A DNA stretch of 19,683 bases from Phycisphaerae bacterium (lineage in GTDB: Bacteria; Planctomycetota; Phycisphaerae; Sedimentisphaerales; Anaerobacaceae): assembly GCA_030608075.1 (NCBI GenBank), contig JAUWIU010000034.1, forward strand, positions 1-19,683, read 5' to 3'. This document shows positions 1 to 19,683 of this stretch, in pieces. The notes beneath the pieces were generated by a model that saw only the letters and a list, made by a program, of their open reading frames with translations, did no database searches and had not been told where the DNA came from. The translations under genes and the position numbers were made by a program. Numbering within the stretch: position 1 is the first letter of the stretch; each line of letters begins with the position of its first letter.

Positions 1-10
1 CAGTCCAGGG

Positions 11-41
11 GAAATATTTTTTGTGTACCAAAAAATATTTC
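11..41. promoter_or_regulatory. Perfect 13-bp inverted repeat, GAAATATTTTTTG-tgtac-CAAAAAATATTTC. Candidate operator or protein-binding palindrome about 190 bp upstream of the flotillin gene.
   Basis: Read directly from the sequence. The two arms are exact reverse complements around a 5-bp spacer. They are AT-rich, so this is more likely a binding site than a stable terminator hairpin, and no T-run follows. Confidence 0.35.
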
Positions 42-156
42 ACAAGAACACAATATAACCCGTTCAATAACAAAGAGTTAAGGAGTATTAACCTAAACAG
101 ATACCCACAAATTATTCCGAAGAGGCAAAAAAACAAAAAAAAGTCAAAGAATTTTG

Positions 157-183
157 TTGACATTCTTGTCGGGCGAATAGAGT
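157..183 (+). promoter_or_regulatory. Putative sigma70-type promoter for the flotillin gene: TTGACA (157-162), 15-bp spacer, TAGAGT (178-183).
   Basis: The -35 hexamer is consensus. The -10 is weak and the spacer is short. A good RBS (AAGGAG) sits at 221-226 ahead of ATG 233. Confidence 0.25.
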
Positions 184-232
184 CTGTCGGGGTGATGTCC
201 TTAACCAACCGTTAATTTGAAAGGAGAATATT

Positions 233-1747: not shown

Positions 1748-1804
1748 AATCTTGAGCTGACGATAATCTTGGTGCGGGCCAATGATGAGCGACCTTATGG
1801 TCTG

Positions 1805-3342: not shown

Positions 3343-3515
3343 TTTGCAGCTCCCTTTCGCAGAAGGCAGTTTTGTTTTCGCTTATGAGATATTTATCAGG
3401 GCCGACAGATTTTGTCAACCTGTTAGCTGGGCCACTGCCGATGTCGTTCCGGCTTATCGGTCAAGGCCGATTTTCCCCAGCGCCCGCAAAGCGTGCTATG
3501 ATTATGTGTTTTTGA

Positions 3516-3544
3516 TTGTCTATCGGGCTGAGCCGTGCTATATT
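3516..3544 (+). promoter_or_regulatory. Putative sigma70 promoter for the E2 gene: TTGTCT (3516-3521), 17-bp spacer, extended -10 TGcTATATT (3536-3544).
   Basis: Hexamers and spacing read from the sequence. Lies ~95 nt upstream of ATG 3638 in a divergent intergenic region. Confidence 0.35.
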
Positions 3545-3637
3545 CACCCGATTATAACGAACAACAGTGTTTCGCAGGACAGCACAAGGCCAATTGCTTT
3601 TGGCATGTATTGACTCTGATTTGTGGGAATTCTGTAA

Positions 3638-4711: not shown

Positions 4712-4811
4712 ATCGCGGGTTTGAACAGTGCAGATGGAAAGATTTTAGCTTACGATAACTTCTTGCATAAGATGACGTTCTCACATCGGAGCACTTTTGC
4801 AGGACGGCTTT

Positions 4812-7205: not shown

Positions 7206-7456
7206 GATAAGGCACCTCGCGTTTGGTTTTTAAGAAGGTAGCGATATTCTTTTGTCAGCAATCCACAGGGGAAAAACGACCCCGCCTACGGTATTATAAC
7301 TTCTTTTTATCGGCTCGTCCAATAAATTAGGTAAAGTTTTTCTCATTTCTTTGCCGAATAAGACTAATGAGCCTCTAACTGTTTTCAGGGTTGAAAAGCC
7401 GTTTTTCTCCCAGGAACTTAGCTTTTCGGTGTGTTTCTGAATGGTGGGAAGGAACT

Positions 7457-8674
7457 ATGAGAACTATTGCAGTTGTGAATCAGAAAGGTGGTTGTGGAAA
7501 GACAACGGTATCGATAAACCTGGCAAGTGCGATTGCTGAGCTGGGATACAGGACCCTGCTGGTCGATATGGACCCGCAGTCGCACTGCGCAGTCGGCCTT
7601 GCCGTGCCGGAGGAGCAAATCGAGCAGAGTATCTACGATGTGCTTATAAGCAACAGTCGAAACGAGCCGATAAGGCTCGCCGAAATACTCTGGCAGATTG
7701 GCGACAAGCTGGAGCTGGCGCCGGCCAGTATAGACCTGTCTGCATTCGAGCAGCAGATGTCAGGTATTCTCGACCGCGAATACTGCTTGAAAAATGTTCT
7801 CAACAACGTGAAAAACGAATTCGACTACGCAATAGTAGATTGCCCGCCGGCGGTCGGGTTGTTGACATTCAATGCCCTACGGGCCGCAAGTGATGTTATT
7901 GTTCCCGTCGAGACCGGGTATTTTGCTCTGCACGGGTTGAGCAGACAGCTCGAAACGCTCAGCATACTTTGCAAACGCTGCAAACAAAATGTCAACGTAG
8001 GGGTTCTTGCGAGCATGTACGACATCAGGACAAGGATGGCCAGGGAAATTCTCGCTGAACTCAGAGAACACTTTGCCGACAAAATGCTCTCTACAATTGT
8101 CAATTTCAATACCAAGCTCAAGGAAGCCGCCAGTCTGGGCCAACCAATCAACGAATACGACCCTCTCAGCAAAGGCCAGACCAATTTTCGCGCATTAGCC
8201 GAGGAAATTACAGGCTCCCAGGCCAAGCAGCAGCGCCACGAGTATGTCAACTCGTTAGCCAACCAGCTTGCATCCATTAGTGCAACCGCTGATGAGTTGC
8301 TCCAGGCCGCAAAACCCCAAATAAAACCTGTCGAAACCTCCCCACAAACGGAAACGGCAAAGCAGGCAAAAACCGACGCAAAGCTCTCCGATTACTACGG
8401 CGTCACCCAGGTAAATAACGCAGTAGTCTTCGTTACCTTGGATCCTCGCGCCCAAAAAGTCCAGCTCGCCGGTGATTTCAATGATTGGCAGCCGGGCGAA
8501 AATGAATTGCAGAAGGTGGGTGATACCGGCGTCTGGCAGACAAAAATAAAACTGCCCGTGGGAAAATATCGCTATCGCCTCGTTGTAGACGGACAGTGGC
8601 AGCAGGACCCATATAATGAGCAGACAGAACTAAATCCGTTCGGCGACCTCAATTCCGTCCTTGATGTAAAGTAG
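7457..8674 (+). CDS. ParA/MinD/Soj-family P-loop ATPase fused to a C-terminal AMPK-beta-type glycogen-binding domain (CBM48), 405 aa.
   Basis: The track start at 7391 is a TTG. In-frame ATG at 7457 has a GGAAGG RBS. N-terminus carries the deviant Walker A motif NQKGGCGKTT and ParA-like motifs (IVDCPPAVGLL, VIVPVETGYFALHGL). A Q/A/K-rich linker follows. The C-terminus is FVTLDPRAQKVQLAGDFNDWQP...GKYRYRLVVDGQWQQDPYN...FGDLNSVLDV, which closely matches the AMPK beta-subunit / isoamylase N-terminal glycogen-binding fold (GxFNxW ... Y.Y.F.VDGQW..DP). Confidence 0.85.
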   Translation: MRTIAVVNQKGGCGKTTVSINLASAIAELGYRTLLVDMDPQSHCAVGLAVPEEQIEQSIYDVLISNSRNEPIRLAEILWQIGDKLELAPASIDLSAFEQQMSGILDREYCLKNVLNNVKNEFDYAIVDCPPAVGLLTFNALRAASDVIVPVETGYFALHGLSRQLETLSILCKRCKQNVNVGVLASMYDIRTRMAREILAELREHFADKMLSTIVNFNTKLKEAASLGQPINEYDPLSKGQTNFRALAEEITGSQAKQQRHEYVNSLANQLASISATADELLQAAKPQIKPVETSPQTETAKQAKTDAKLSDYYGVTQVNNAVVFVTLDPRAQKVQLAGDFNDWQPGENELQKVGDTGVWQTKIKLPVGKYRYRLVVDGQWQQDPYNEQTELNPFGDLNSVLDVK

Positions 8675-8764
8675 CTATCACACGCCAAAAGGGGTTCATC
8701 TGTAGTTTGTACGTAGATTTTTCTGCCCTTTTGCCACGCTTTCCCTCTAATAACCCATGTTGCC

Positions 8765-8858
8765 CCCCTGTCATTCCCGCGAACCCCTGTCATTCCCGCG
8801 AACCTATGTCATTGCCGCGAAACTTGTCCTGAGCGGAGCCGAAGGAGCGGGAATCCAG
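8765..8858. repeat. REP/BIME-like intergenic repeat. Three tandem ~19-bp units CCCTGTCATTCCCGCGAA (8765-8821), of which the third carries the left arm of a hairpin ATTCCCGC...GCGGGAAT. Homologous to the element at 12905-12956.
   Basis: Direct and inverted repeats read from the sequence. A 50-bp segment (TGTCATTsCsGCGAAACTTGTCCTGAGCGGAGCCGAAGGAGCrGGAATCCAG) is shared between the two loci. Confidence 0.6.
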
Positions 8859-8909
8859 ACTCTCGGCCGGCCATCGAGATAACCGCAGCAATTTCCAACT
8901 TTCAGGCAA

Positions 8910-8938
8910 TTGACCGGCACGCGGTTTTTCATTATCAT
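8910..8938 (+). promoter_or_regulatory. Putative sigma70 promoter of the sugar ABC operon: TTGACC (8910-8915), 17-bp spacer, TATCAT (8933-8938).
   Basis: Hexamers and spacing read from the sequence. Lies ~60 nt upstream of ATG 8997. Confidence 0.4.
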
Positions 8939-8996
8939 TCTACTGTTGAGTTGGTTGTCGAGAAAATCTGATGCCGTCTTATGCGGAAGATAAACT

Positions 8997-9992
8997 ATGA
9001 GTAAAGCAAGACTCTTTGTTGTCGCGGGGTTGGCCGTTGCCGCCCTTGTCGCAATTCTTGTCATCGTGGCAAGGCACGGTAAGGCAACCGCAGTCCGGGA
9101 TATTGGCTCAAAGACCACAGAATCCACCGGAGCTATCGGCCTATCCGTATTGACGATGGGCAATCCCTTTTTCAAGGATATTGCTGACGCGATGCATATC
9201 GAAGCAGCCAAACATCACTATCGGGTCATTGTCGAATCCGGCGACAGCGACCCCGCCAAACAAAAAGACCAGGTCGCAAGCTTCATCGTCCAGAAGGTTG
9301 ATGCAATTGTCCTGTGTCCATGTGATTCCAAATCAATCGGAAGCTCCATCATCGCCGCCAATAAGGCCGGCATCCCTGTCTTCACCGCCGATATCGCCTG
9401 CCTCGCAGAAGGCGCCAAAGTCATCTGCCACGTGGCAACCGACAATTACGGCGGCGGACGTGAGGCGGCCAGGGCTATCATCGAAGCAATCGGAAACAGG
9501 GGCAAAGTCGCTATAGTCGACTACCCGGAGATAGAATCCGTCATCCTGCGGACAAACGGCTTCGAGGACGAGCTTGCACGCGCAAAAGCTGAAGACGGCG
9601 TAGACATTGAGATTGTTGCGAAGATACCCGGTATGGGCGAGGAAGCCCAGTCTTTCAAGGCCGCTGAGGACATTCTTCAGGCCCATCCAGACCTGGATGC
9701 AATCTTTGCCATAAATGACCCCTCCGCTATGGGAGTGGTCGCAGCAGTTGAGAAAGCCGGCAAAGGCGGCAGAATCAAAATCGTCGGATTTGACGGTATG
9801 CCTCGCGGGCGACTGGCTATCAGAGACGGAAAGGTTTACGCCGACCCTATTCAGTATCCCAAAAGAATAGGAACAACAACCGTAGAAGTCATAATGAAAT
9901 ACATGGCCGGAGAAAAAGTGCCGCCTGAAATTCTTATCCCGACTACGCTGTATCGAAAAACCGACGCCGAAAAAGACCCAACCCTTAAGTAG
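8997..9992 (+). CDS. Periplasmic sugar-binding protein of an ABC transporter (RbsB/Peripla_BP_1-like), membrane-anchored or signal-peptide bearing, 331 aa.
   Basis: N-terminal hydrophobic segment (LFVVAGLAVAALVAILVIVA). Typical type-I periplasmic binding protein motifs (GLSVLTMGNPFF, VDAIVLCPCDS, IPVFTADI, INDPSAMGVVAAVEKAGK). Gene context is with an ABC ATPase and permease. Confidence 0.85.
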   Translation: MSKARLFVVAGLAVAALVAILVIVARHGKATAVRDIGSKTTESTGAIGLSVLTMGNPFFKDIADAMHIEAAKHHYRVIVESGDSDPAKQKDQVASFIVQKVDAIVLCPCDSKSIGSSIIAANKAGIPVFTADIACLAEGAKVICHVATDNYGGGREAARAIIEAIGNRGKVAIVDYPEIESVILRTNGFEDELARAKAEDGVDIEIVAKIPGMGEEAQSFKAAEDILQAHPDLDAIFAINDPSAMGVVAAVEKAGKGGRIKIVGFDGMPRGRLAIRDGKVYADPIQYPKRIGTTTVEVIMKYMAGEKVPPEILIPTTLYRKTDAEKDPTLK

Positions 9993-10003
9993 AAAGAACC
10001 CTG

Positions 10004-11512
10004 ATGAACTTTAACAATACCCCTGACGCCAAGAGGCCTCTGGTGCAGATGGAGGGTATCGACAAGTCTTTTCCCGGTGTCAGGGCCTTGCGGAATGCTC
10101 GGCTCCGGCTTTATCCGGGCCAGGTTCTCGGCCTGGTCGGAGAAAACGGCGCCGGAAAGACCACCCTAATCAAGACCCTTTCCGGCGCGCACATGCCAGA
10201 CGCCGGCACCATCACAATTGACGGCGTCCAGCCGCATATTCGCACTCCCCTCGACGCCCAGAGGGCGGGGGTGGCGGTTATCTATCAGGAGTTCAATCTC
10301 GTCCCAACTCTCACCGCCCGCGAGAATATCTTTCTCGGCCGTGAAAAGGCAAAGTGCTCGTTCGTTTCGCGAAGGGCCGAACGTCGTCAGGTTCAGCGGC
10401 TTTTTGCCGATATCGGGGTGAGTATCGACCCCGAGGCCCTCTGCCGGGACCTGTCCGTAGCGCAGCAGCAGGTGGTCGAAATCGCCAAAGCAATCTCCAT
10501 AAGTGCCCGAATAGTCGTTATGGATGAACCCTCCGCCTGTCTTACGCCGCAGGAGGTCAAACGCTTGTTCGCCATCATACGAGACCTCAAAAAGCAGGGG
10601 ATAGGGGTCATTTACATCAGCCATCGTCTGGAGGAGATTTTCAAAATTGCCGACAGCGTTACTGTAATGCGCGACGGTGAGCACGTCACAACCCGCCCGG
10701 TCGGCGAGATAACAAGCGCCGAGCTGATAGAAATGATGGTTGGCCGCAGGCTGGAAAATGAGTTCCCCAAGGCAAAGACGCCTGTCGGCCCCGAGCGACT
10801 GGTGGTCAAAAAATTGTGCCGCGGCAGGGCCGTCAGAGATGTCTCCTTCAGCGTCAGGCGCGGTGAGGTGCTGGGCGTCACGGGCCTGGTCAGCGCCGGT
10901 CGCACCGAGGTCGCACGGCTTATCTTCGGCGCAGATGTCCCCGACAGCGGAAGCATAGAGCTTGACGCCAGACCGCTCTACATCCGCTCACCCCGCGACG
11001 CTATCGCCAATAGCATCTGCCTCTTGACCGAAGACCGCAAGGCCCAGGGGCTGGTTGCGGGATTGTCGGCCCATGAAAACTTTGCACTGCCGAATCTTTC
11101 GCACTGGTCACGAAATTCCTTTATCAACCCAAAAAAGGAACGCAGTGCATTTGCCCGCTACGTCAACAGCCTTAACATCAAGCTCGCCGACCAGCAGCAG
11201 CTCGCCGGCAACCTCTCCGGCGGAAATCAGCAGAAGCTGGTCCTGGCAAAATGGCTGGAATCAAACTCCGAAGTTGTCATCTTCGATGAGCCTACCCGCG
11301 GCATCGATGTCGGCTCAAAATACGAGATATACCTGCTCATTAACGAGCTGGCCGCTGCCGGCAAGGCCGTCATTATGATATCATCGGAGTTTGACGAGGT
11401 TCTCGGGATGAGCGACCGTATTATCGTTATGCACGACGGACGCATAAGCGGTGAAATCACCGATGTCGCCGCCGCAACGCAGGAACAAATTATGGCACTG
11501 GCCATCGCATAA
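10004..11512 (+). CDS. Sugar ABC transporter ATP-binding protein with duplicated ABC domains (RbsA/MglA/AraG-type), 502 aa.
   Basis: Walker A GENGAGKTT. Second, degenerate N-loop in domain 2. ABC signature LSGGNQQK. Walker B/D-loop VVMDEPSA and IFDEPTRGID. The two-domain architecture is typical of CUT2-family sugar importers. Confidence 0.9.
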   Translation: MNFNNTPDAKRPLVQMEGIDKSFPGVRALRNARLRLYPGQVLGLVGENGAGKTTLIKTLSGAHMPDAGTITIDGVQPHIRTPLDAQRAGVAVIYQEFNLVPTLTARENIFLGREKAKCSFVSRRAERRQVQRLFADIGVSIDPEALCRDLSVAQQQVVEIAKAISISARIVVMDEPSACLTPQEVKRLFAIIRDLKKQGIGVIYISHRLEEIFKIADSVTVMRDGEHVTTRPVGEITSAELIEMMVGRRLENEFPKAKTPVGPERLVVKKLCRGRAVRDVSFSVRRGEVLGVTGLVSAGRTEVARLIFGADVPDSGSIELDARPLYIRSPRDAIANSICLLTEDRKAQGLVAGLSAHENFALPNLSHWSRNSFINPKKERSAFARYVNSLNIKLADQQQLAGNLSGGNQQKLVLAKWLESNSEVVIFDEPTRGIDVGSKYEIYLLINELAAAGKAVIMISSEFDEVLGMSDRIIVMHDGRISGEITDVAAATQEQIMALAIA

Positions 11513-11533
11513 AATGCAACCGCCTTTGTCGAT

Positions 11534-12877
11534 ATGGAAATGCCAATGAGCATATTAAGGTCGAACAGCAGAATGTCACGCTTTCTGGCAGACTACGGTA
11601 TACTCGGTGTATTGCTGCTGCTCTGCCTGTACTACTCGGTCCGTACGCTCAAACAGCAGCATCCAACCGGTGAGGCGGCCGCTGAAATTCTCGCCCGGAA
11701 AATCTCCCGCTCTTTCGAAAGCTCTGCGAAGGTAGTTATCGCTGCCAAGACCGGCAGAGAAAATCTGGCATTTGCAGATACCCTCAACGAGCTGCTTGAA
11801 AAAGCCGGCTTTAAAATCGTACGCAGTATAAAGGGCGACCCGCTTTCTATCCGAAATGCCTTCGGCAACCTTGCCGACAGCGGCCTGCGCGCCGACACCA
11901 TCGCCACCACACGCGACTACGTCAACGTCGTCCGCAATATCAAAGCAAAGTTCCCGGCACTGGCCGAGGTAACCATCAGCACACCTGACGGCTATCTTTG
12001 GCCGACTTTTCTGCTGCGGGCCAATCTTCTTAACATATCAAACCAAATCGCCGTGATTGCCATTGTAGCGGTCGGCATGACGATGGTTATCGTCACAGGA
12101 GGAATCGACCTTTCCGTCGGCAGCCTGGTGGCCTTTTCCGCAGTGGTCGCAGCCTGGCTGATTCGCCGCACAGGCGGCGCCAATGCGTCCGGCATTGCAA
12201 TGGCTGGTAGCTGCGCCGCCGCCATAATCCTCTGCGCCGTCATCGGCACTTTTTCCGGGGCAATGGTCACCCGGTTCAGGATAGCGCCCTTCATTGTCAC
12301 GCTCGCCGTCATGCAGATGGCACGCGGCCTGGCCTATCTCATAGCAAAGGGTAAACCAATCTACCAAATCCCAGACTCATTCCTCTGGCTCGGACGCGGC
12401 GCTGAGCCCTTCTTCTCCATACCATACGCCGTGATACTTATGGCAATTATCTACATCTCTGCGCACATAATGATGTCCCATACCACGTTAGGCCGCTACA
12501 TCTACGCGGTCGGCGGAAACATCGAAGCCGCACGACTCTCCGGAGTCCGCGTCAATGCAATTCTGCTGCTGGTCTACACCGTAATCGGCGCGCTGGCCGG
12601 CGTCGGCGGAATCGTTATGGCATCACAGCTAAAAAGCGGAGCACCAACCTTCGGCAATATGTACGAGCTGTATATAATTGCCGCCGCCGTTGTCGGAGGG
12701 GCAAGTCTAAAAGGCGGAGAGGGAAAAATCTTCGGCACGCTCATAGGTGCGTTCATCATCGCTGTCATTAACAACGGGATGAACCTCACAAACGTGGAAA
12801 GCTACACGCAAAAGGTCGTCCTCGGCCTCGTTATCCTCGGCGCAGTCCTGCTCGACACCATCAAAAAACGCAGGTAA
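11534..12877 (+). CDS. ABC transporter permease (RbsC/BPD_transp_2 family) with an atypical ~120-aa hydrophilic insertion between TM1 and TM2, 447 aa.
   Basis: C-terminal ~290 aa match RbsC-like permeases (IAVIAIVAVGMTMVIVTGGIDLSVGSLVAF...). The N-terminus has one TM (YGILGVLLLLCLYYSV) followed by a soluble alpha/beta-like segment (AKVVIAAKTGRENLAFADTLNELLEKAGFKIVRSIKG...) before the conserved core. Alternative starts at 11543 and 11570 are possible. Confidence 0.85.
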   Translation: MEMPMSILRSNSRMSRFLADYGILGVLLLLCLYYSVRTLKQQHPTGEAAAEILARKISRSFESSAKVVIAAKTGRENLAFADTLNELLEKAGFKIVRSIKGDPLSIRNAFGNLADSGLRADTIATTRDYVNVVRNIKAKFPALAEVTISTPDGYLWPTFLLRANLLNISNQIAVIAIVAVGMTMVIVTGGIDLSVGSLVAFSAVVAAWLIRRTGGANASGIAMAGSCAAAIILCAVIGTFSGAMVTRFRIAPFIVTLAVMQMARGLAYLIAKGKPIYQIPDSFLWLGRGAEPFFSIPYAVILMAIIYISAHIMMSHTTLGRYIYAVGGNIEAARLSGVRVNAILLLVYTVIGALAGVGGIVMASQLKSGAPTFGNMYELYIIAAAVVGGASLKGGEGKIFGTLIGAFIIAVINNGMNLTNVESYTQKVVLGLVILGAVLLDTIKKRR

Positions 12878-12884
12878 TTAGTAT

Positions 12885-13059
12885 CTGTTGCGGAAACGAG
12901 GTTTTGTCATTCCTGCGAAACTTGTCCTGAGCGGAGCCGAAGGAGCAGGAATCCAGTTTTTAGCCCGTAGACCCCTGCTCCCCGCTTTCGCGGGGACAAG
13001 TTTACACCTGCGAAAGCAGGTGCGGGGGTGACATCATTGGTTTTCGCTTTCCGCAACAG
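12885..13059. repeat. MITE/REP-like 175-bp element bounded by 12-bp perfect terminal inverted repeats CTGTTGCGGAAA (12885-12896 and 13048-13059). Contains three internal hairpins with GAAA/TTTC tetraloops.
   Basis: Read directly from the sequence. The hairpins are CATTCCTGC...GCAGGAATC, CCCCGC-TTTC-GCGGGG and CACCTGC-GAAA-GCAGGTG. The first hairpin module is homologous to 8808-8858. Confidence 0.55.
12905..12966 (+). terminator. Possible intrinsic terminator for the ABC permease gene. Hairpin CATTCCTGC...GCAGGAATC followed by CAGTTTTT.
   Basis: 8-9-bp stem with a large 28-nt loop, then a T5 run. Lies 28 bp after the stop at 12877, in a convergent intergenic region. Confidence 0.3.
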
Positions 13060-13140
13060 GAAGTAATTAAACCAAGAAATGATAACAGGTCAAGCATAAA
13101 CCCGATATTTAGCCCCCAGTTTTACCGGGGGTTCCCGGCG

Positions 13141-13650
13141 CTAATTGCCCTGCAGCGCCGAATCCTTTTCGACCACCTTCTTCTGCTGGGCCTTTTTGAA
13201 TTCTGCCAGTTTCTTGGCCAAACCCTCGTCAGACAGCGCCAGAATTTGCACCGCTAACACGGCGGCGTTTTTCGCACCGGGTTTTCCGACAGCCACCGTA
13301 GCCACCGGCACCCCGCCGGGCATCTGCACGGTGCTAAGCAGCGCGTCAATTCCCTCCAGGCCCGAACCCGAAATCAACGGCACGCCAATAACCGGCAGAG
13401 TTGTCTTTGCAGCCAAGGCACCGGCTAAATGAGCCGCCATACCAGCAGCGGCAATTATCACTTTCAGACCACGCTCGGCGGCGGTCTCGGCAAACTCAGC
13501 CGCCATCGCCGGCGTCCGATGCGCCGAAATTATCCGAACTGTCGGCTCGATACCAAACCCTTTGAGCATATCAATGCAGTTCTGCATAACAGCCTTATCG
13601 CTGTCGGAACCCATTACCACCGCTACGGGACTTGTTTTTTCAGATACCAT
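13141..13650 (-). CDS. purE: N5-carboxyaminoimidazole ribonucleotide mutase / phosphoribosylaminoimidazole carboxylase catalytic subunit (PurE), 169 aa.
   Basis: Classic PurE sequence ([10 protein letters not shown]...IISAHRTP...[14 protein letters not shown]...PVIGVPL). Size and motifs are characteristic. Confidence 0.9.
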
Positions 13651-13750
13651 TTGCTTTTCCGGCCACTGAGATTACAATCACTTTCAGGTTTTGAACTACG
13701 CCGCAATAATAGCGGCCGAACAACAAAAACGCAAGTAACAGGTGGGGAAA

Positions 13751-14626
13751 ATGCACACAAGACAACCCGTTGTCGCCGGACAGTTTTATCCGGGCCGACA
13801 TAATTCGTGCGTGGCCGAAATCGAAGAATTTCTCAAAGAGGCAACACTGAGCCAATCGCTGCCGCAAACGATAGTGGCCGGCATTGTACCACACGCCGGC
13901 TGGACCTTCAGTGCGGCCCCGGCGGCAATGGTCTTTGCAGCGGTAAAAAAACGCCACGAAAACGTAGATACCTTCGTAATTTTTGGAGCTGCACACGCCT
14001 ATTTTGGCTCCGTACCGGCCGTTTATGACAAAGGTAGCTGGCTTACTCCGTTAGGTGAGGTGTCAATCGATGAGGAATTGGCCGACGCAGTATTGAAAAC
14101 CAAACCCGCCGTCAGCGACCCGACAGCTCACAGCCCCGAGCACAGTATCGAGGTGCAGGTGCCGTTCGTACAGCATCTTTTTGCTCAGGCAAAGATACTG
14201 CCGATTATCGTTCCGCCCAGCGACGAGGCGATTCCGTTGGGCGAGGCTGTCGGCGATATTATCGCCGCCGAAGCCGACCGAAAAATCGTTTGTATCGGCT
14301 CAACCGACCTGACCCATTACGGCCCGCGCTATGGCTTCACTCAGATGGGAACCGGACCGGATGCTATCCAGTGGGCCCACCAGGTCAACGATAAGATGTT
14401 TATCGATTTGGCGTTAAAGCTCGACCCTCGAGCGATGCTCACAAGCGCCGCCGAGAACCACAACGCCTGCGGCGCAGGTGCCGCCGCCGCGGCGGTTGCC
14501 GCCGCAAGAAAACTGGGCAAAACCGAAGGCCTTCTGCTTGCACAAACCAACAGCAATGAAGTGATGCTGCAAAAGATGGGAACCTCAAGCGCAGAAAGTG
14601 TCGGCTACGCCGCAATAGTCTTTTAG
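13751..14626 (+). CDS. MEMO1-family protein (AmmeMemoRadiSam system protein B-like), ~291 aa.
   Basis: ATG at 13751 with AGGTGGGG Shine-Dalgarno. The track start at 13742 is a GTG. N-terminal VVAGQFYPG, and PHAGWTFS, HSIEVQVPF, GSTDLTHYGPRYGF, HNACGAG and SVGYAAIVF align with conserved MEMO1 blocks (PHAGY..G, HS.E...P, S.D..H.G.R..Y, NTICG, SYAAG). Confidence 0.8.
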   Translation: MHTRQPVVAGQFYPGRHNSCVAEIEEFLKEATLSQSLPQTIVAGIVPHAGWTFSAAPAAMVFAAVKKRHENVDTFVIFGAAHAYFGSVPAVYDKGSWLTPLGEVSIDEELADAVLKTKPAVSDPTAHSPEHSIEVQVPFVQHLFAQAKILPIIVPPSDEAIPLGEAVGDIIAAEADRKIVCIGSTDLTHYGPRYGFTQMGTGPDAIQWAHQVNDKMFIDLALKLDPRAMLTSAAENHNACGAGAAAAAVAAARKLGKTEGLLLAQTNSNEVMLQKMGTSSAESVGYAAIVF

Positions 14627-14719
14627 CGGGCGCGTCCCTGTTCGGCCCAGATTGTCGAAAAGTGCTTCCGCTGGCGGATAGACTAACTCAACAATTTTAG
14701 GAATTTTTACAGATTTTGC

Positions 14720-14748
14720 TTGAACTTGTATCGCAAGTTTGCGATAAT
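14720..14748 (+). promoter_or_regulatory. Promoter of the toxin-antitoxin operon with an embedded operator: TTGAAC (14720-14725), 17-bp spacer, extended -10 TGcGATAAT (14740-14748). Perfect 8-bp inverted repeat TATCGCAA-gt-TTGCGATA (14729-14746) overlaps the spacer and -10.
   Basis: Read from the sequence. A palindrome overlapping the -10 is the classical arrangement for TA autorepression. RBS AGAGGTAAGG precedes ATG 14765. Confidence 0.55.
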
Positions 14749-14764
14749 ATATTTAGAGGTAAGG

Positions 14765-15136
14765 ATGCCGAAAACAAAAATAACAATATATCAGGAACAG
14801 GCTGAAGTTGTGCCACTGTTGGATTGGTTGGACGAACAGTCTGAGAAGGTGCAGGATAAATGTATCGCTAAAATCAGGCGGCTGGAGAAAATGGGCCTTG
14901 AACTCCGCAGGCCGGAATGTGATTACTTGTCAGAGGGCATCTATGAGTTGAGAGTAAAAGGTAATAAGGTAAATTATCGTATTCTGTATGCCTTTTCAGG
15001 GAAAAATGCAGTTTTGCTTTCGCACGGCTGCACAAAAGGAAGGAAAGTCCCCAGGAAAGAGATAAAAAGAGCAATGAAAAACCTTGCGGAATACAAACGA
15101 AACCCACGCAAACATACTTTCAATGGAGAGTTGTAA
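14765..15136 (+). CDS. higB: Type II toxin-antitoxin system toxin, RelE/ParE superfamily (HigB-like / phage Gp49-like), 123 aa.
   Basis: Small basic protein encoded upstream of an HTH antitoxin (HigBA order: toxin first). Motif pattern matches Gp49/HigB-like toxins: LLDWLDEQ...KIRRLEKMGLELRRP...LSEGIYELRVKGNKVNYRILYAF...VLLSHGCTKGRKVPRKEIKRA. Confidence 0.65.
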   Translation: MPKTKITIYQEQAEVVPLLDWLDEQSEKVQDKCIAKIRRLEKMGLELRRPECDYLSEGIYELRVKGNKVNYRILYAFSGKNAVLLSHGCTKGRKVPRKEIKRAMKNLAEYKRNPRKHTFNGEL

Positions 15137-15138
15137 CA

Positions 15139-15462
15139 ATGGCTAAAAAGCAAAAAACAACAACCGATGCTGTTAAGATACTTCACAAGCGGTATATAAA
15201 TACACCCGCAAGGCGAAAATCTCTGGAAAAAGAAATACAAAATTCAGAGATAGCAGCCCGCATATACGAACTTCGCCAACAGGCAAAACTTAGCCAGAAA
15301 CAGCTTGCCGAACTCATAGGGACAACTCAATCAGTTATAAGCCGCCTTGAGGACGCTGATTATAAAGGCCATAGCCTTGAAATGCTTCGCCGGGTAGCAA
15401 CAGTGCTTCATTGCAAACTGAAAGTCCGGATAGTACCGGAAAACAAGTACGCCTACGCTTAA
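15139..15462 (+). CDS. higA: HTH XRE-family antitoxin (HigA-like), 107 aa.
   Basis: 2-nt gap after the toxin gene. GGAGAG RBS. Helix-turn-helix segment LSQKQLAELIGTTQSVISRLE, typical of Xre/HigA antitoxins. Confidence 0.65.
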   Translation: MAKKQKTTTDAVKILHKRYINTPARRKSLEKEIQNSEIAARIYELRQQAKLSQKQLAELIGTTQSVISRLEDADYKGHSLEMLRRVATVLHCKLKVRIVPENKYAYA

Positions 15463-15465
15463 CTG

Positions 15466-15534
15466 CATTTCCTTCTTCTCAACATCACCGCACCGAGGGC
15501 GAGAAGGAAGCGAGGCGAAGGAAACAGGTCGTCA
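15466..15534. repeat. Repeat copy A of a ~50-90-bp element family. Core TTCTCAACATCACCGC at 15476-15491, with CTTCTC/GAGAAG inverted arms.
   Basis: Shares 21 bp (TTTCCTTCT..CAACATCACCGC) and downstream blocks (CACCgAgGgCGAGAAG, GGAAGCG, GTCaTCAT) with copy C at 17794-17880. Confidence 0.6.
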
Positions 15535-15586
15535 TTAATGAGGATGCATTCAAAACTGGCTGAGAGTTTCCCTCTGCAACACGTGG

Positions 15587-16825
15587 TCAGGCTAACTTGC
15601 TTACTGCTTCGACGACCAGTTTGCCTATTGGCAGATGCTGCGGGCAGCGAGCCTCTGCAAGCCTGTAATCGGTAGCGAGTAGTTTGTTTCTTACTCTACC
15701 TGGGATTTCAGCAAACAGCTTCCTTGCTTTATCATACTCGCCGTAGCTATTGTAGTACATCAAATAACGCATAATATCACTAACGTAAGGTGCATTCGGC
15801 AGAACCGAGTTACAGATGTATGCACAGCCGGCACAATAACCGCTGCAACTCGCCTGGGTGTATGCATCGAAAACCTCGATATCCGTCTGCGAGAGTTTGG
15901 TTTTATCAAGCACTGCTGCAATATTTGAAGTCAGCAAGGCAACATTCTGCATCGCAACACACGCTGAGCTTATCCTCTTGTCTTCCAGCACAGCTTTTAT
16001 TTTTGCCTGTCCCTCGGTAAAACCTCGTTTAAGAAAATGCTCGGCCAGTTTTTTATCCTCGTCAGCTTTAATCTTTTTGCCCTGGGTTTTCATGGCAATA
16101 AGACCGATACCTGCTTTATAACACGCCTCGATAGCAGCCTGCATTTTATCGTCCTTCATCAATCGGAAGTTATAAGCTGTCTGTATCGCATCAATCCAAC
16201 CACATCTTGCTGCGGCTGAGAGACATCGGGACATATTCTTGTGAGTGCTGAAACCGAAAAAGCGAATCAGTTTCCTTTTCTTTGCACCTTCAGCCCACCT
16301 CTTCACTTCATCCGTTAACTGGCCTGGGTCGTACATTCGGTAAACCCCAAAGTACAGGTCGACATATTTGGTATGCATACGTTTCAGGGACGTCTGCAGA
16401 CATTTTTCTAAGTCTGCCGCTGTTTTTGAATCGGATTCCTTGGTGACAATAAACAATTCTTTTCGCACTTCGCGGTTCTTAGAAATGTATTTACCTATAC
16501 TTATCTCACTGTTTCCGCCTGCGGCAACGAGGGATGTATCCCAATGGTTGACTCCCCATTCGAGGGCCTTTCTCAAAACTATCGGTTCTCCAGCGCCGAA
16601 ACCAAGAGCCAGACACGGAATTTCAACTCCTGTTTTGCCTAACTTTCGTCTCGGCACTTGCGGTAATTTGGGCTTTTGTATTTTTTCTTTAGCATTAGGG
16701 TCAGTGACGTTTGGCTCGTTTGGAGCAGCCATCCCATTAGCACCAGCCAAGGCCGAACCTAAACCAGCAGCTCCCATCGTCTTCAGAAAATTCCTTCTAT
16801 CGATTTTATCTTGTTTTTCCTTCAT
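15587..16825 (-). CDS. Tat-exported aldo/keto reductase family oxidoreductase with a C-terminal Cys-rich (putative Fe-S) region, ~412 aa.
   Basis: Twin-arginine signal (DRRNFLKTMGAAGLGSALA). AKR-like core (ELFIVTKE..., GFSTH). C-terminal CSGYCAGCAYIC cluster (C-x3-C-x2-C-x3-C) plus an additional Cys, resembling COG1453-type AKR/Fe-S proteins. The track start at 16840 is a TTG with no SD. ATG at 16825 has a GGAG RBS. Confidence 0.75.
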   Translation of the reverse strand: MKEKQDKIDRRNFLKTMGAAGLGSALAGANGMAAPNEPNVTDPNAKEKIQKPKLPQVPRRKLGKTGVEIPCLALGFGAGEPIVLRKALEWGVNHWDTSLVAAGGNSEISIGKYISKNREVRKELFIVTKESDSKTAADLEKCLQTSLKRMHTKYVDLYFGVYRMYDPGQLTDEVKRWAEGAKKRKLIRFFGFSTHKNMSRCLSAAARCGWIDAIQTAYNFRLMKDDKMQAAIEACYKAGIGLIAMKTQGKKIKADEDKKLAEHFLKRGFTEGQAKIKAVLEDKRISSACVAMQNVALLTSNIAAVLDKTKLSQTDIEVFDAYTQASCSGYCAGCAYICNSVLPNAPYVSDIMRYLMYYNSYGEYDKARKLFAEIPGRVRNKLLATDYRLAEARCPQHLPIGKLVVEAVSKLA

Positions 16826-16850
16826 CGAATCAATCTCCAAAAAAATTCAG

Positions 16851-16880
16851 CGTTTTCTCAACATCACCGTCGCTGAAAGT
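16851..16880. repeat. Repeat copy B, truncated. CAGCGTTTTCTCAACATCACCG, core at 16855-16869. Overlaps the stop codon of the GIY-YIG-like gene.
   Basis: 25-bp match to copy C (CAGCGTTT(CC)TTCTCAACATCACCG). Confidence 0.5.
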
Positions 16881-17301
16881 TCCGCGGGGGATATTCTTTG
16901 TACAGTTTATAGTAATCGTTTAGTAATTCGGTCTCTGCCTGTTTTAGGGATTCCGCAGTGCCAAAAGGTTTATAAGCAATTTCGATACCGCCATAGTGGG
17001 TAATAATGTAACGGTATAAAGGCGAATTTTCACCAGAACAAAAAGCCTCAGCATACTTCATATATCTTCTATACAAAGTCTGCTTGGTTTGGCCGATGTA
17101 TACGATATTGCTTTCGGATTTAACTCTTGGTATCTTTTTTTCACAGACAAAGGCATATAAGACATTAGAGACATCCTTTGCTTCTTGAGAACCAAATACT
17201 TGCCTGAACTCACGCAAACAATCCTTTTTAGATTTATGGCTTTGGATGCTATTCGGTAAAGTGGCACAGGAACGAAAGAACTTTGATAGTGTTATAGCCA
17301 T
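16864..17301 (-). CDS. Small protein with a probable GIY-YIG nuclease-like domain, 145 aa.
   Basis: LYAFVCEK followed ~10 residues later by IVYIGQTKQTLYRRYMKY, with a downstream conserved Glu (AETELLNDYYKLY). This fits the GIY-x10-YIG...R...E pattern. Family assignment is by motif only. Confidence 0.5.
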   Translation of the reverse strand: MAITLSKFFRSCATLPNSIQSHKSKKDCLREFRQVFGSQEAKDVSNVLYAFVCEKKIPRVKSESNIVYIGQTKQTLYRRYMKYAEAFCSGENSPLYRYIITHYGGIEIAYKPFGTAESLKQAETELLNDYYKLYKEYPPRNFQRR

Positions 17302-17340
17302 TTCAATTGCCCTTTTCTACTTAAAAAGTTTCCTCCTCAT

Positions 17341-17385
17341 TATAACCGCACCAAGGCCGAGCAGCCAGAGAATACGATTACTTTA
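17341..17385. repeat. Repeat copy D, partial and divergent. AACCGCACCAAGGCCGAGCAG. On the minus strand it ends GGTGCGGTTATAATGAGGAGGAAAC.
   Basis: Aligns with the CACCAAAGCCGAGAAG block and the GCGGTGATGTTGAGAAGGAAAC end of copy C. Lies between two co-oriented minus-strand genes. Confidence 0.4.
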
Positions 17386-17390
17386 TCGCT

Positions 17391-17774
17391 TTAATGTTCT
17401 TCATTTTTTTGCTTCCACTCTTTGTAAAGCTTCTTTATCTCAAGTAACCAAACCCGTAATCTTTCCTCAGGGTCGAGTATAGGTTTTCTTCCAATTTCTT
17501 CAAAAAGACCCACAAAAAACCCTTTTCCTGGTAACTGGGCACCTTCCTTGTGTATAACTAAAGCTGACAAAAGAGGGTTGCCCTTTTTGTGTTCTTCCGA
17601 GGAAATTTCACCCAGAATATCTCTCAGTTTTTTATGCTGACCTTCTTCCCAAGACTCCTGTTCGTTAATACCCATCTCATGTAATAAATCCCCGTATGTA
17701 ATAAGGTCTTCCTTTGAGGCAAGTTCTTTGAGTCGCTTATATACATATTCTTTCATTTGAGCGTAATTCAGCAT
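17391..17774 (-). CDS. Hypothetical protein, 127 aa.
   Basis: Clean ORF with ATG start, co-oriented with its neighbours. Charged, no TM segment. No family recognized. Confidence 0.55.
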   Translation of the reverse strand: MLNYAQMKEYVYKRLKELASKEDLITYGDLLHEMGINEQESWEEGQHKKLRDILGEISSEEHKKGNPLLSALVIHKEGAQLPGKGFFVGLFEEIGRKPILDPEERLRVWLLEIKKLYKEWKQKNEEH

Positions 17775-17793
17775 TATGCTATCTTTCCTTTTC

Positions 17794-17880
17794 AGCGTTT
17801 CCTTCTCAACATCACCGCCTGTCGTGAGCGAAGCCGAACGGCACCAAAGCCGAGAAGCAAAATAGGAAGCGGTTCAGTCA
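17794..17880. repeat. Repeat copy C, the longest. Core TTCTCAACATCACCGC at 17804-17819. CTTCTC...GAGAAG arms flank a ~45-nt loop.
   Basis: Homologous to A, B and D (see the findings). On the minus strand it begins at the TGA stop of ORF 17874-18176 and ends ~35 nt before the start of ORF 17391-17774. Confidence 0.6.
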
Positions 17881-18176
17881 TCTTTTCTGTTTTTGAATGT
17901 AACAAGAAGTCCGCCAGTTACAGCGACCACAAGAGACCATTGGATTGCCAATCCTTTGCTGTCGATACGCTTGCGGTGATAACTAATCGGTTGCTCGGCC
18001 ATCTCGTCAAGAGACTTTTTTGTAGCAGCCATTTGTTCCAGTGTTAATGGGCTTGCTGGGTAGCGTGGCTTTCGCAATCGGAAAGTAGTAGTATAGTTGC
18101 ACAATTGGGCGAGACCCAATACTACAAAGATAGCAATTCCAGTCCAAAGAATTATCTTCTGTTTTCTGTTCACCAC
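17874..18176 (-). CDS. Small membrane protein, two predicted TM helices, 100 aa (GTG start).
   Basis: Hydrophobic segments IILWTGIAIFVVLGLAQL and LAIQWSLVVAVTGGLLVTF. Only a GTG start is available and the SD is weak. Confidence 0.45.
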   Translation of the reverse strand: MVNRKQKIILWTGIAIFVVLGLAQLCNYTTTFRLRKPRYPASPLTLEQMAATKKSLDEMAEQPISYHRKRIDSKGLAIQWSLVVAVTGGLLVTFKNRKDD

Positions 18177-18207
18177 TTACCGAATCTCGTATGGATTTCA
18201 ATTAACA

Positions 18208-18714
18208 TCAGACGCCAGCAAGCCAGTTTTCGGCCAGAATAGCAAAGTCCAGAGCATTTACCTTGCCATCACCATTGAGGTCGCCAGATAGTTCTGGTTC
18301 CGTTGCAGCAGGTCGAAAATAACCGAGTATTGTTAGCGAGCTGTAAAGTTTGCCAACAATGAAGTACAAGGATTCGCCAGATACAACTACAAGGCAACCA
18401 TCAGGGTATTCCTGCCTATACTGAAAGGGTTCACCTGTAGGCGTACTTCGAAAACTACCGTCAATAACAGTAGTTCCAGATTTTAATTTCCAAAATGTAT
18501 AATAGCCACCAGAGGTTTTAACTCCGTACGAGCTTTCCACATAAGCTCGAAGTAGAACCAATTCTTTGTCTTTGGGTACGGTAGTGACAAGATATTCACC
18601 GCTCTCTACCTTGTGGAGATGGGCAGAGAATCCATCACAGTCCTCACAAAGAGGCGAAGCAAAGAGAGACTCACAGCAGATAAACAGGAAAATATTGAGG
18701 ATTAACTTTTTCAT
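18208..18714 (-). CDS. Secreted protein with a C-terminal dockerin-like / EF-hand-like calcium-binding repeat, 168 aa.
   Basis: Strong RBS (AAGGAGG, 8 nt spacing). Signal peptide MKKLILNIFLFICCESLFA. C-terminal GDLNGDGKVNALDFAILAENWL matches the D-x-N-x-D-G-x-V-N-x-x-D dockerin type-I repeat pattern. Confidence 0.7.
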   Translation of the reverse strand: MKKLILNIFLFICCESLFASPLCEDCDGFSAHLHKVESGEYLVTTVPKDKELVLLRAYVESSYGVKTSGGYYTFWKLKSGTTVIDGSFRSTPTGEPFQYRQEYPDGCLVVVSGESLYFIVGKLYSSLTILGYFRPAATEPELSGDLNGDGKVNALDFAILAENWLAGV

Positions 18715-18774
18715 CGTTTTTACCTCCTTTTGTGTTAAGGCGGTGGCTTCACCAGAGCTGCCGCATTTTTTTGT

Positions 18775-18924
18775 TTACTTATTTTCGGCCTGTTTTTCTA
18801 CTATCATTTCAGCGATGTCTTTTTTATCCCGTTCTGATAGCTTGTAGTTTCTGGTTTGTATGCAGCCATGATAGCAAATAACAAATATTAAAGACATAGC
18901 AAGAAGCAAGGTTTTAATTCTCAT
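18775..18924 (-). CDS. Unannotated small ORF, 49 aa, signal-peptide/lipoprotein-like (MRIKTLLLAMSLIFVICYHGC...).
   Basis: Below the track's 60-aa cutoff. ATG with AGGAGA RBS. Hydrophobic N-terminus followed by Cys residues, and a charged C-terminus (SERDKKDIAEMIVEKQAENK). Confidence 0.4.
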   Translation of the reverse strand: MRIKTLLLAMSLIFVICYHGCIQTRNYKLSERDKKDIAEMIVEKQAENK

Positions 18925-19172
18925 TTTCTTCTCCTTTCAAAAAATCTTTGATATTTTGACGCGCCTGCACCGCGCAGACGCTTAATCCGCACACGCTAAA
19001 CTCCGATTATTCGCGTTTATGCCTCTTCTTCTCTTTCCCCCATTTTTGAAAAGCGATATTATTATAACCGGCTTGGTTTGCTTGTCAAGCAAAAAACTCC
19101 TTTGGGTAAAAATTACGTAGTTTCCACAATAGGGACAAATCGCCAGGAACGCAGCTATTTCTTGCCATTTGA

Positions 19173-19262
19173 CCCCTTGTGCCCTTATGCTCTTATGCTC
19201 TTATGCTCTTGTGCCCTTATGTTCTTGTCTCTTGTGCCCTTGTGCTCTTATGTTCTTGTTCT
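19173..19262. repeat. Tandem array of ~11 copies of an 8-bp unit CYCTTRTG (CCCTTATG/CTCTTATG/CTCTTGTG/TTCTTGT).
   Basis: Read directly from the sequence. The unit length is not a multiple of 3, so the overlapping track ORFs are artefacts. Lies ~50 bp upstream of a strong promoter. Confidence 0.75.
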
Positions 19263-19311
19263 CTCCGTCCTCTGCGCTCTCTGTGGTGAATTCTTTTTAT
19301 TCGTTTTTTTG

Positions 19312-19340
19312 TTGACTTTTGTTTGAAAATCTGTTAAAAT
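19312..19340 (+). promoter_or_regulatory. Near-consensus sigma70 promoter: TTGACT (19312-19317), 17-bp spacer, TAAAAT (19335-19340).
   Basis: Hexamers and spacing read from the sequence. Predicted TSS ~19347, about 310 nt upstream of the next start codon. Confidence 0.55.
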
Positions 19341-19346
19341 ACCTGC

Positions 19347-19655
19347 ATGTTTGCCAGAAGGCAAACGACAAACCGGCCGCAGGCGCCGGATATAGCGGAG
19401 AACCGCACGTTTTCGTATCAGCAGACACACGCCAAAAAGCATTATTTGTCAAGCCAGACAAGGTTTTGAACATTTACATTTGTTTACCCCGTGAGATAGT
19501 GAAGCGTTATCTAATGGGGTGTAATTTGGATTTTGATATTGTTTCGAATTGCGTTATTAGGATTTCGGATTTCAGTCTGCCGGATAACTCCTTATGCAGC
19601 AAGCTCTTATAGCCAACAGAATTATCTGGTTTTTTAGTACATAGGAGGCCTGTTC
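19347..19655 (+). ncRNA. Candidate structured 5' leader / cis-regulatory RNA (riboswitch- or attenuator-like) of the gene starting at 19656. Ends in terminator hairpin CCGGAUAA...UUAUCUGG + U6 (19580-19635).
   Basis: Several hairpins: GTTTGCC-agaa-GGCAAAC at 19349-19366, CCGGC...GCCGG, GCGG-agaa-CCGC, CTTGTC...GACAAG, CCCC..GAGATA...TATCTA..GGGG. A terminator-like stem plus T6 sits immediately before the AGGAGG RBS. The terminator loop contains ACUCCUUAUG, complementary to the SD region CAUAGGAGG. No known riboswitch consensus recognized. Confidence 0.4.
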
Positions 19656-19683
19656 ATGGCTACCGAACCCCAAACCCTACCAA
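19656..19683 (+). CDS. 5' end of a gene of unknown function (MATEPQTLP...), continues beyond the window.
   Basis: ATG with AGGAGG Shine-Dalgarno 8 nt upstream. Only 9 codons are visible. Confidence 0.4.

Follow-up and report, generated by a model that had tools for sequence, protein, structure and literature searches.

The window analyzed here is a 19,683-nt stretch (positions 1-19,683) of the Phycisphaerae contig JAUWIU010000034.1 (assembly GCA_030608075.1; Sedimentisphaerales, Anaerobacaceae). Sequence comparison shows its segment 19294-19611 to be a copy of a dispersed noncoding unit that is multi-copy, brings its own promoter and has covariation-supported hairpins at the 5' side. The unit appears to be specific to Sedimentisphaerales-like Planctomycetota, has no apparent tie to any gene family, and is evidently not a ligand sensor for the adjacent open reading frame (ORF). 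An earlier note on this DNA had proposed a riboswitch or attenuator, i.e., a strong promoter followed by a structured leader that ends in a terminator just before a gene start. The promoter-driven, conserved structured RNA was borne out by our comparison; control of the adjacent gene through a terminator and an anti-Shine-Dalgarno (anti-SD) pairing was not, because the element is multi-copy, its neighbors are unrelated, and the proposed expression platform is private to the window copy. We estimate a probability of about 50% that the unit represents an autonomous noncoding RNA (ncRNA) gene family rather than the leader of one gene. What has been found is a previously undescribed structured ncRNA or mosaic-repeat family, with its kin among dispersed intergenic noncoding elements and multi-copy ncRNAs.

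Representing the transcribed strand as a series of modules, we define the following parts, all on the plus strand: (i) M1, the conserved 5' domain at 19347-19483 (+1 to about +134), with five short hairpins; (ii) an optional inserted hairpin, TTACCCCGTGAGATAG..TTATCTAATGGGGT, at 19484-19520, delineated in alignment A1; (iii) M2, a U-rich block at 19521-19611, in which repeated (U/A)GGAUUU motifs are followed by CC(A/G)GATAACTCCTTATGCA(A/G)C; and (iv) M4 and M5, which lie downstream of M2 in other copies, M4 being characterized by CCTCTACA..ATGCAAAACAAACCCAAT and by CCTCTACATCTGTCGAGAACCCTCTACAAATCAGCCCTTTTTATGCAAAACAAACCCAATTTCC. The alignments used were A1 (42 copies), A2 (MAFFT, 66 distinct copies of M1) and A4 (model-guided, 79 more diverse copies), the last of which served for the main covariation test.

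Relatives were collected with a query in which a 97-codon open frame across the leader was treated as a "protein", and by scanning six degenerate 24-nt patterns. The JGI metagenomes yielded at least 368 related stretches, confirmed by tblastn, and 80 loci were retained; comparison loci are labelled with L-numbers (L001, L035, etc.). Copies in species-representative metagenome-assembled genomes (MAGs) of GTDB were counted with an exact 36-nt core pattern, which gave 79 exact matches spread over about 20 MAGs; well-sampled MAGs have 6-12 each, and the matches often lie at contig ends. The instances of the family number in the hundreds in marine and estuarine sediment metagenomes, with about ten or more per genome; L013-L092 stem from White Oak River, Baltic/Aarhus and salt-marsh sediment sets. 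Similarity within the family spans 19294-19611 in both blastn and A1; M1 shares 85-95% blastn identity with more than 150 copies, and M2 shares 75-85%. The covariance model R1 recovered the window copy with 152 bits (E = 2e-34) as the sole copy in the window. The earlier note had found no known riboswitch that fitted the leader, and the Rfam scan that it had suggested gave no family match either: with Rfam 15, there were 0 matches in the window at the gathering threshold and only noise in the E-value mode, and among 16 other loci (15 at the gathering threshold, L035 in the E-value mode) nothing fell on the element. A literature search for the core sequences (three conserved strings) and for any Sedimentisphaerales ncRNA found no paper containing the former or describing the latter in the library searched. 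The core pattern had no match in IMG/VR, and a phage origin was rejected on that account; the 97-aa leader "ORF" had no match among viral contigs.

Exact copies of the core were also encountered in MAGs labelled Desulfobacterales, Desulfobacteria, Bathyarchaeum, Heimdallarchaeota, Thermoplasmata and Aegiribacteria (L095, L114, L117, L131, L154, L098/L101/L124, etc.), the Aegiribacteria-labelled MAG having 9 of them. These copies most likely represent mis-binned or mislabelled Planctomycetota DNA.

The transcribed unit is headed by a sigma-70-type promoter at 19312-19340 of the plus strand, with TTGACT at 19312-19317, a 17-nt spacer, a TGn element upstream of the -10 box, and TAAAAT at 19335-19340. 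The predicted transcription start site (TSS) is A19347. With 10 of 12 matching positions this promoter is certainly present, as the earlier note had stated, but it is not the best in the window: a perfect promoter (TTGACA-16-TATAAT, 12/12) lies at 19088..19061 of the minus strand and is directed away from the element. In A1, the T/A/A/A/T positions of the -10 box are at least 90% conserved. The family uses three versions of the promoter, TTGAC-17-TAAAAT, TTGAAA-17-TGGTATAAT and TTGATT-17-TATAAT, and in all three the spacing between the -35 and -10 boxes and the distance to a conserved ATGTT start are unchanged. One geometry relative to ATGTT in three unlike promoters marks a unit that is transcribed from a fixed 5' end.

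Within M1, the five hairpins are H1 (19347-19355/19360-19369), H2 (19373-19377/19382-19386), H3 (19395-19398/19403-19406), H4 (19415-19419/19424-19428) and H5' (19446-19450/19457-19461), closed by AGNA-type tetraloops or a hexaloop. H1, H2 and H5' covary. H3 and H4, being invariant, carry no information on covariation; the segment that holds them and their linkers, 19391-19480, is almost invariant across copies. Folding, scored against shuffled sequence, gave -26.1 kcal/mol for 19347-19410 (z = -3.7) and -16.3 kcal/mol for 19484-19523 (z = -4.6), and the hairpins begin at +1/+2 of A19347, in agreement with the at least five hairpins, the first at +2, that had been read from the window alone. 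In A4, 90% of the cells are paired and 20 of the 28 pairs show double-sided changes, a number reached in none of 500 shuffles; the covariation score is 0.154, compared to 0.068 in the shuffles (again 0/500 reach it) and to no more than 0.046 in slid controls. In A2, 89% of the cells pair and double-sided changes are seen at 7 pairs, which none of 500 shuffles matched. Thus, a leader lacking conservation and covariation, the outcome that the earlier note had named as fatal to its proposal, is not what the family displays, given the changes at 20 of 28 pairs and a promoter geometry conserved over 42 aligned copies. The changes in H1, H2 and H5' look compensatory, and we conclude from the alignments that these hairpins are maintained by such changes. 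In divergent copies, H2 or H4 is replaced by a longer hairpin at the same site.

ORF-based explanations were rejected. For the only recurrent ORF of M1, substitutions are distributed 49/35/35 over the codon positions and the ORF ends are variable; the 97-aa and 40-aa ORFs of the plus strand and the 27-43-aa ORF of the minus strand were dismissed as coding as well. An own promoter at a fixed distance combined with no coding signature is what is expected of a structured ncRNA, and the unit shows both. On the minus strand, H1 together with the complement of the -10 box forms a terminator-like site (19347-19369 in the window; 4985-5012 in L035), which is present in 73 of 93 copies and could halt antisense or convergent transcription.

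Downstream of M1, the composition of the unit becomes modular. Within the 42 copies of A1, the optional hairpin at 19484-19520 is limited to the window copy, L013, L015 and L016 (the sequence of L014 is the same as that of L013), and the exact 33-mer of 19486-19520 had no match in the genome, metagenome or viral collections. M2 holds 3-4 (U/A)GGAUUU motifs and a conserved CCAGATAACTCCTTATGCAAC; its GGA motifs sit in a weakly structured block (z = -1.6). A conserved GATAA/TTATC hairpin considered within M2 was dropped, as it showed no covariation in A1. In about 95% of other copies the unit runs on for 450-700 nt: among 101 other copies whose contigs extend at least 900 nt downstream, M2 is followed by variable tandem 7-8-mers, then by M4 (96/101; at least 90% invariant over 91 distinct copies), and then by 1-4 M5 modules (M5 in 91/101). 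M4 and M5 are near-invariant, A/C-rich and G-poor, the tail carries repeated AAACCCAAU motifs, and the arrays end at a median of +620. From +200 to +650 the transcript strand is A-rich, with 14-17% G and a C/G ratio of 1.3-1.9. Regions of the Rho-dependent (rut) type are C-rich, G-poor and unstructured over some 80 nt or more; judged from base composition, such a site would fit (C/G up to 1.9), and the fold is no better than that of shuffles. A recurrent canonical intrinsic terminator after the unit was not found in 93 copies; a canonical plus-strand terminator-like site within 1.2 kb exists in only 35 of the 93, with no positional peak. The defined 3' end of a typical structured ncRNA is, therefore, missing.

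Long ORFs appear in this tail in varying frames (L013-L092), with translations such as "MQNKPNF..MNVN..DYENK..NKPNSNPIK" and "PLHLSRTLYKS", and blastp clusters these repeat-module ORFs across 54 loci. They are spurious: conservation of M4 and M5 is block-wise and not 3-periodic, and the same DNA is read in different frames depending on the locus, so that the "MQNKPNF" pseudo-ORFs were rejected as coding. A low-complexity block resembling M2 occurs at L001 (179-231), an unrelated locus. There, 100-700 has the architecture of the unit but another 5' head, in that a TTGAAA-17-TATAAT promoter and two hairpins at +1 are followed by tandem 7-mers (CTATGAA), ATGCAAAACAAACCCAAT-type modules and a siroheme-synthase-like gene. 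The A/C-rich modules are, therefore, common to more than one kind of unit. Further mosaic intergenic modules are present elsewhere in the window, at 8765-8850 and 12905-12960, with the 19-mer CCCCTGTCATTCCCGCGAA repeated three times; the window also has two instances of a hairpin module, ..CTTGTCCTGAGCGGAGCCGAAGGAGC.., and similar CTTGTCCTGAGCG.. modules follow many arrays at other loci.

A T-rich stretch with a small hairpin (GAATTC TTTTT ATTC GTTTTTTT) at 19288-19311 of the plus strand abuts the -35 box and corresponds to the A-run/T-run hairpin and T-run found upstream of many copies (family-a upstream flanks). In L035, the upstream-flank hairpin at 4917-4944 was scored as a bidirectional terminator-like site; hairpins of this type may insulate the unit from transcription arriving upstream. 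Farther upstream of the promoter, at 19176-19264, Tandem Repeats Finder (TRF) detects an array of about 11 copies of the 8-mer CTTGTGCY/CTTATGCT. The same type of 8-mer is present in spacers and flanks of other family copies, for example in the M2-M4 spacer of L037, and has blastn matches in L093 and L142.

Flanking genes are unrelated from locus to locus. The next long ORF downstream is co-oriented with the unit in 68 of 92 copies (55/81 under a stricter cut-off; a first tally had given 73/98, p about 1e-6), while 24 of the 92 (about 26-32% of copies) face a convergent gene; the orientation of the upstream neighbor shows no bias (51 vs 59). Co-oriented neighbors include dnaK (three loci), thrC (two), htrA, lepB, pheT, prmC, a PBP4-type peptidase and a GH127 enzyme, and a DegT-like gene is found downstream in 3 loci. 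This pattern could result from a portable cassette of promoter and long 5' leader acting in cis, which would transcribe any downstream gene, with M1 modifying or stabilizing the transcript in the manner of put/EAR-like antitermination, a Rho attenuator or a sensor of a global signal. Such a cassette would explain why the downstream neighbor is biased and the upstream one is not, and it agrees with the promoter-proximal, structured M1, the absence of a conserved intrinsic terminator between unit and gene, the related array of L001 that abuts a start codon, and the AGGAGG-ATG of the window located 45 nt beyond M2. It does not account for the copies that face a convergent gene or for L035, where the unit lies between one divergent and one convergent gene. 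Moreover, each of the three dnaK loci has a conserved sigma-54-type motif, TGGCAC-N5-TTGCA, between the array and the gene, 60-95 nt ahead of the dnaK ATG (in L025 at about +772, in L077 at about +851 and in L161 at about +745 from the TSS of the unit; three Sedimentisphaerales-like contigs from three species); therefore, dnaK has its own promoter. One further copy precedes a tRNA gene that likewise keeps its own promoter downstream of the array. Because the downstream genes, in addition, have no common function and there is no conserved expression platform, we regard the cassette as doubtful, compared to the autonomous RNA gene. A known parallel would be the HK022 put and EAR RNAs, processive antitermination RNAs that act on the transcribing polymerase. 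They share with the unit a hairpin RNA just downstream of a promoter, followed by a long transcription unit; they differ in having two hairpins instead of five, the unit shows no sequence or Rfam similarity to them, and it is multi-copy and chromosomal.

Another explanation is that the unit is a selfish or neutral mosaic intergenic repeat of the BIME, BOX or Correia kind, which spreads or is homogenized as DNA, the promoter and hairpins being by-products. The unit does behave as a mosaic repeat of the BIME/BOX/ERIC type: it is multi-copy, intergenic and modular, with a variable number of sub-modules and optional hairpin inserts. Its cores are near-identical, it frequently lies at contig ends, many other tandem repeats and repeat modules surround it in these genomes, and the window locus is hypervariable compared to a relative with 95% nucleotide identity. 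BOX of Streptococcus pneumoniae and BIME/REP of enterobacteria are modular intergenic mosaic repeats, and the likeness extends to many copies, a strictly intergenic location, ordered sub-modules in variable number, optional hairpins and transcription with or beside neighboring genes. The unit, however, is longer (0.45-0.7 kb), has a fixed polarity and a conserved sigma-70 promoter of its own, carries covarying 5' hairpins, and is confined to Sedimentisphaerales-like Planctomycetota; no terminal inverted repeats were seen in it. Correia elements (CREE) of Neisseria resemble it as dispersed intergenic elements that bring promoter activity and hairpin RNA next to diverse genes. They are miniature inverted-repeat transposable elements (MITEs), about 100-155 bp long, that have terminal inverted repeats, a TA target duplication and promoters arising at the ends; none of these features was found in the unit.

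Several observations make a selfish repeat unlikely. The unit occupies the same positions in different species (dnaK in 3 loci, thrC in 2, the DegT-like gene in 3), which argues for stable inheritance. Its hairpins appear to be kept by compensatory changes, the promoter geometry has been kept through three sequence versions, and the base composition is strongly strand-asymmetric. No transposase neighbors, target duplications or terminal inverted repeats were seen at the loci, and at the borders of the unit no terminal inverted repeats are evident. The absence of the core from viral contigs points in the same direction. L008, which diverges from the window at 19166 and carries different DNA downstream, does not provide a clean empty site for comparison.

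The fourth explanation is the gene-specific riboswitch or attenuator, in which a ligand would make the leader change from the 19580-19635 terminator to a fold that is anti-terminating or sequesters the SD, or back, and, thereby, control a gene starting with MATEPQTLP. The hairpin consists of CCGGATAA (19580-19587), a 34-nt loop, TTATCTGG (19622-19629) and T6 (19630-19635) on the plus strand, and is followed by AGGAGG (19643-19648) and an ATG at 19656 that opens a 9-codon ORF, MATEPQTLP, cut by the window end (19643-19683, plus strand). Promoter, structured transcript, hairpin with U6 and AGGAGG-ATG do occur in the order required, the fold of 19491-19640 includes an alternative pairing of GUUAUCU (19506-19512) with GGAUAAC (19582-19588), and 19580-19635 is the only site in the window with the pattern of hairpin and T-run. 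Of random 314-mers with matched composition, 2.9% contain the bare pattern (8-bp stem, loop of at most 40 nt, T6), which makes it mildly unusual and not compelling. The arms, loop and T6 described in the earlier note are, thus, all present, but the stability is not: the hairpin reaches -11 kcal/mol with z = +0.14, and is unformed in the minimum-energy folds of the whole leader and of its 3' part. The 5' arm lies inside M2, the 3' arm and the T-run are specific to the window copy, and the similarity of the family ends within the hairpin loop. The same applies to the proposed anti-SD: ACUCCUUAUG can pair with CAUAGGAG over 8 bp with one bulge, as read from the sequence, but a regulatory switch does not follow, because in A1 the conserved ACTCCTTATG is present with or without an SD after it. 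The "anti-SD" is part of the conserved M2 and, therefore, is kept whether or not an SD follows.

The ORF itself is questionable. The AGGAGG and ATG noted earlier are there, and AGGAGG-N7-ATG at 19643-19656 is a strong start signal, which counts against a reading as spacer. Nevertheless, the first 20 nt of the ORF, ATGGCTACCGAACCCCAAAC (19656-19675), recur as ATGGCTACCCAACCCCAAAC between M2 and M4 in L037 and L039, where the near-identical ATGGCTACCNAACCCCAAAC is located in a noncoding spacer; there is no SD at these loci, and the recurrence is followed by CTTGTGCC/CTTATGCC 8-mers of the type found at 19176-19264 and then by M4/M5. In L152, related ATGGC..GAAACCCAAAAC starts stand ahead of tandem repeats. 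Because M4 follows M2 in 95% of copies, the MATEPQTLP ORF is likelier to be spacer than gene, and we consider a real gene start at 19656 the less probable outcome, albeit one of substantial weight. An LpxD-like gene was considered as the downstream gene, as it follows Memo in relatives with 77% identity, and was rejected, since its start differs from MATEPQTLP. All protein-based routes to the identity of the downstream gene were without result; a concatenated query of the neighboring ORFs and all leader ORFs returned nothing at E <= 1e-3. Three proteins of the window (168 aa, 107 aa and 447 aa) had no exact match in the genome collection.

Riboswitches and attenuating leaders do share with the unit a promoter-proximal structured RNA, and they are usually directed at the downstream gene. 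They are also expected to precede functionally related genes, to carry a conserved expression platform and, in known classes, to match a curated model. What we found instead is a multi-copy element beside unrelated genes, 24 of 92 of them convergent; a 3' arm, U-run and ribosome-binding site (RBS) that are absent from other copies, with a stem of z = +0.14 closing a 34-nt loop; and no match in Rfam 15. M1 has no multi-stem junction or conserved pocket of the aptamer type, only short hairpins, mostly with tetraloops, in series. Hundreds of nucleotides of conserved noncoding modules follow, and downstream genes have their own promoters. Together with the recurrence of the putative ORF start in noncoding sequence, these differences make a gene-specific riboswitch highly improbable.

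The autonomous RNA gene, which we prefer, would work as follows. Transcription would start at about 19347 from the conserved sigma-70 promoter; the 5'-terminal hairpins would stabilize the transcript and present fixed sequences to a putative protein partner, and the unstructured, C-over-G tail would bear linear binding sites. The tail may also be the site of Rho-type termination, given that there is no conserved intrinsic terminator, and leaky read-through into downstream DNA is proposed as the cause of the co-orientation of the next gene in about 70% of copies. In the window copy, the transcript would perhaps be shortened by the weak copy-specific hairpin and U6 (19580-19635), or would continue past the window end. 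Among known RNAs, the small RNAs Qrr1-5 and the sponges CsrB/RsmX-Z and CrcZ are comparable in having their own promoter, several paralogous copies and repeated single-stranded motifs. The unit differs from them by the absence of a conserved intrinsic terminator and by an atypical length and mosaic tail; sponge RNAs that bind CsrA/RsmA contain many GGA motifs, preferentially in hairpin loops, whereas the GGA motifs of the unit lie outside hairpin loops, and its copy number is higher than that of known sponge families. Taken further, M1-M5 might constitute a new class of bacterial long ncRNA of about 0.5-0.7 kb, with ten or more conserved, expressed paralogues in each genome throughout an order of uncultured Planctomycetes from sediment. 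Its invariant 5' hairpins and repeated linear motifs would attract or sequester a factor of global action, such as RNA polymerase, Rho or an RNA-binding protein, and, thereby, set read-through or mRNA fate genome-wide. This extension is speculative, and we think it unlikely to hold in full.

It should be noted that several points weigh against an autonomous RNA gene. The TSS is a prediction, and so are the 3' end and the expression level. A4 was fitted to a covariance model, which inflates its pairing; the covariation is smaller on the MAFFT alignment A2 (7 pairs, compared to 20 of 28), and RNAalifold on A2 yields only H3, H4 and one alternative 3-bp helix. Folding of +1 to +363 is no better than that of shuffles (z = -0.8). 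Near-invariance and mosaic, repeat-laden flanks would also be expected of a recently spreading or gene-converting selfish repeat, and the orientation bias downstream fits a promoter/leader cassette acting in cis equally well. Finally, the proposal of a rut site and Rho is drawn from base composition, and the protein partner is putative.

The window is part of a Planctomycetota chromosome of Sedimentisphaerales type, and a close relative represented by L007-L009 (about 95% nucleotide identity) allowed us to compare the window locus with its surroundings. The core genes are common to both. The relative shares 10072-14735, except for a gap at 12298-12363 and an unaligned part at 12881-13062, as well as 15410-15509 and 18915-19166; the element is not shared. 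L008 diverges from the window exactly at 19166/19167 and, therefore, has no counterpart of the element region. The 250-nt block 18915-19166 around the perfect minus-strand promoter has 80% identity to L008 3338-3586, and the secreted-protein gene that follows it in L008 is a different one; the block resembles a cassette of divergent promoter and 5' untranslated region (UTR) that non-homologous genes have in common. Between these shared parts, a pair of a HigB/Gp49-like toxin and a helix-turn-helix (HTH) antitoxin at 14736-15409 is an insertion compared to L007-L009, which join 14735 to 15410. The segment 15510-18914 is of lower GC content (0.40-0.46 vs about 0.55) and contains an aldo/keto reductase (AKR), a GIY-YIG-like ORF and three small minus-strand ORFs; in L008 two other secreted-protein genes replace it, so that the locus is hypervariable between conserved flanks.

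Of the genes in this segment, the TAT-signal AKR gene at 15473-16858 has about 90% nucleotide identity to copies in L003-L006 and 87.6% in L001/L002 over 15563-16850 (AKR relatives, 87-90% overall). The identity breaks off abruptly on either side, with unrelated sequence beyond; on this comparison, the gene behaves like a horizontally moved single-gene cassette. Synteny was of no help, either via the AKR gene, whose 87-90% relatives have unrelated flanks, or via Memo, which led to the 95% relative without the element. A 168-aa ORF at 18208-18714 of the minus strand, which combines a signal peptide with a dockerin-like motif at its C-terminus, is an orphan: a search of 5.8 billion proteins, in which it formed part of the concatenated query, gave nothing homologous at E <= 1e-3.

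For the search for riboswitches, the window is an instructive false positive, in which a genome-wide repeat family combined with copy-specific sequence gave rise to a strong promoter, a long structured gap and, ahead of an RBS, a hairpin. The element may also serve as a marker of mis-binned Sedimentisphaerales DNA. The "MQNKPNF..." pseudo-proteins of 54 loci would be miscalled as conserved hypothetical proteins, and even if the unit is a selfish mosaic repeat, it still breaks assemblies, many copies lying at contig ends, and generates spurious ORF calls. If, conversely, it is a functional RNA, the family would be a candidate for global regulation in a lineage that is little studied and for the most part uncultured.

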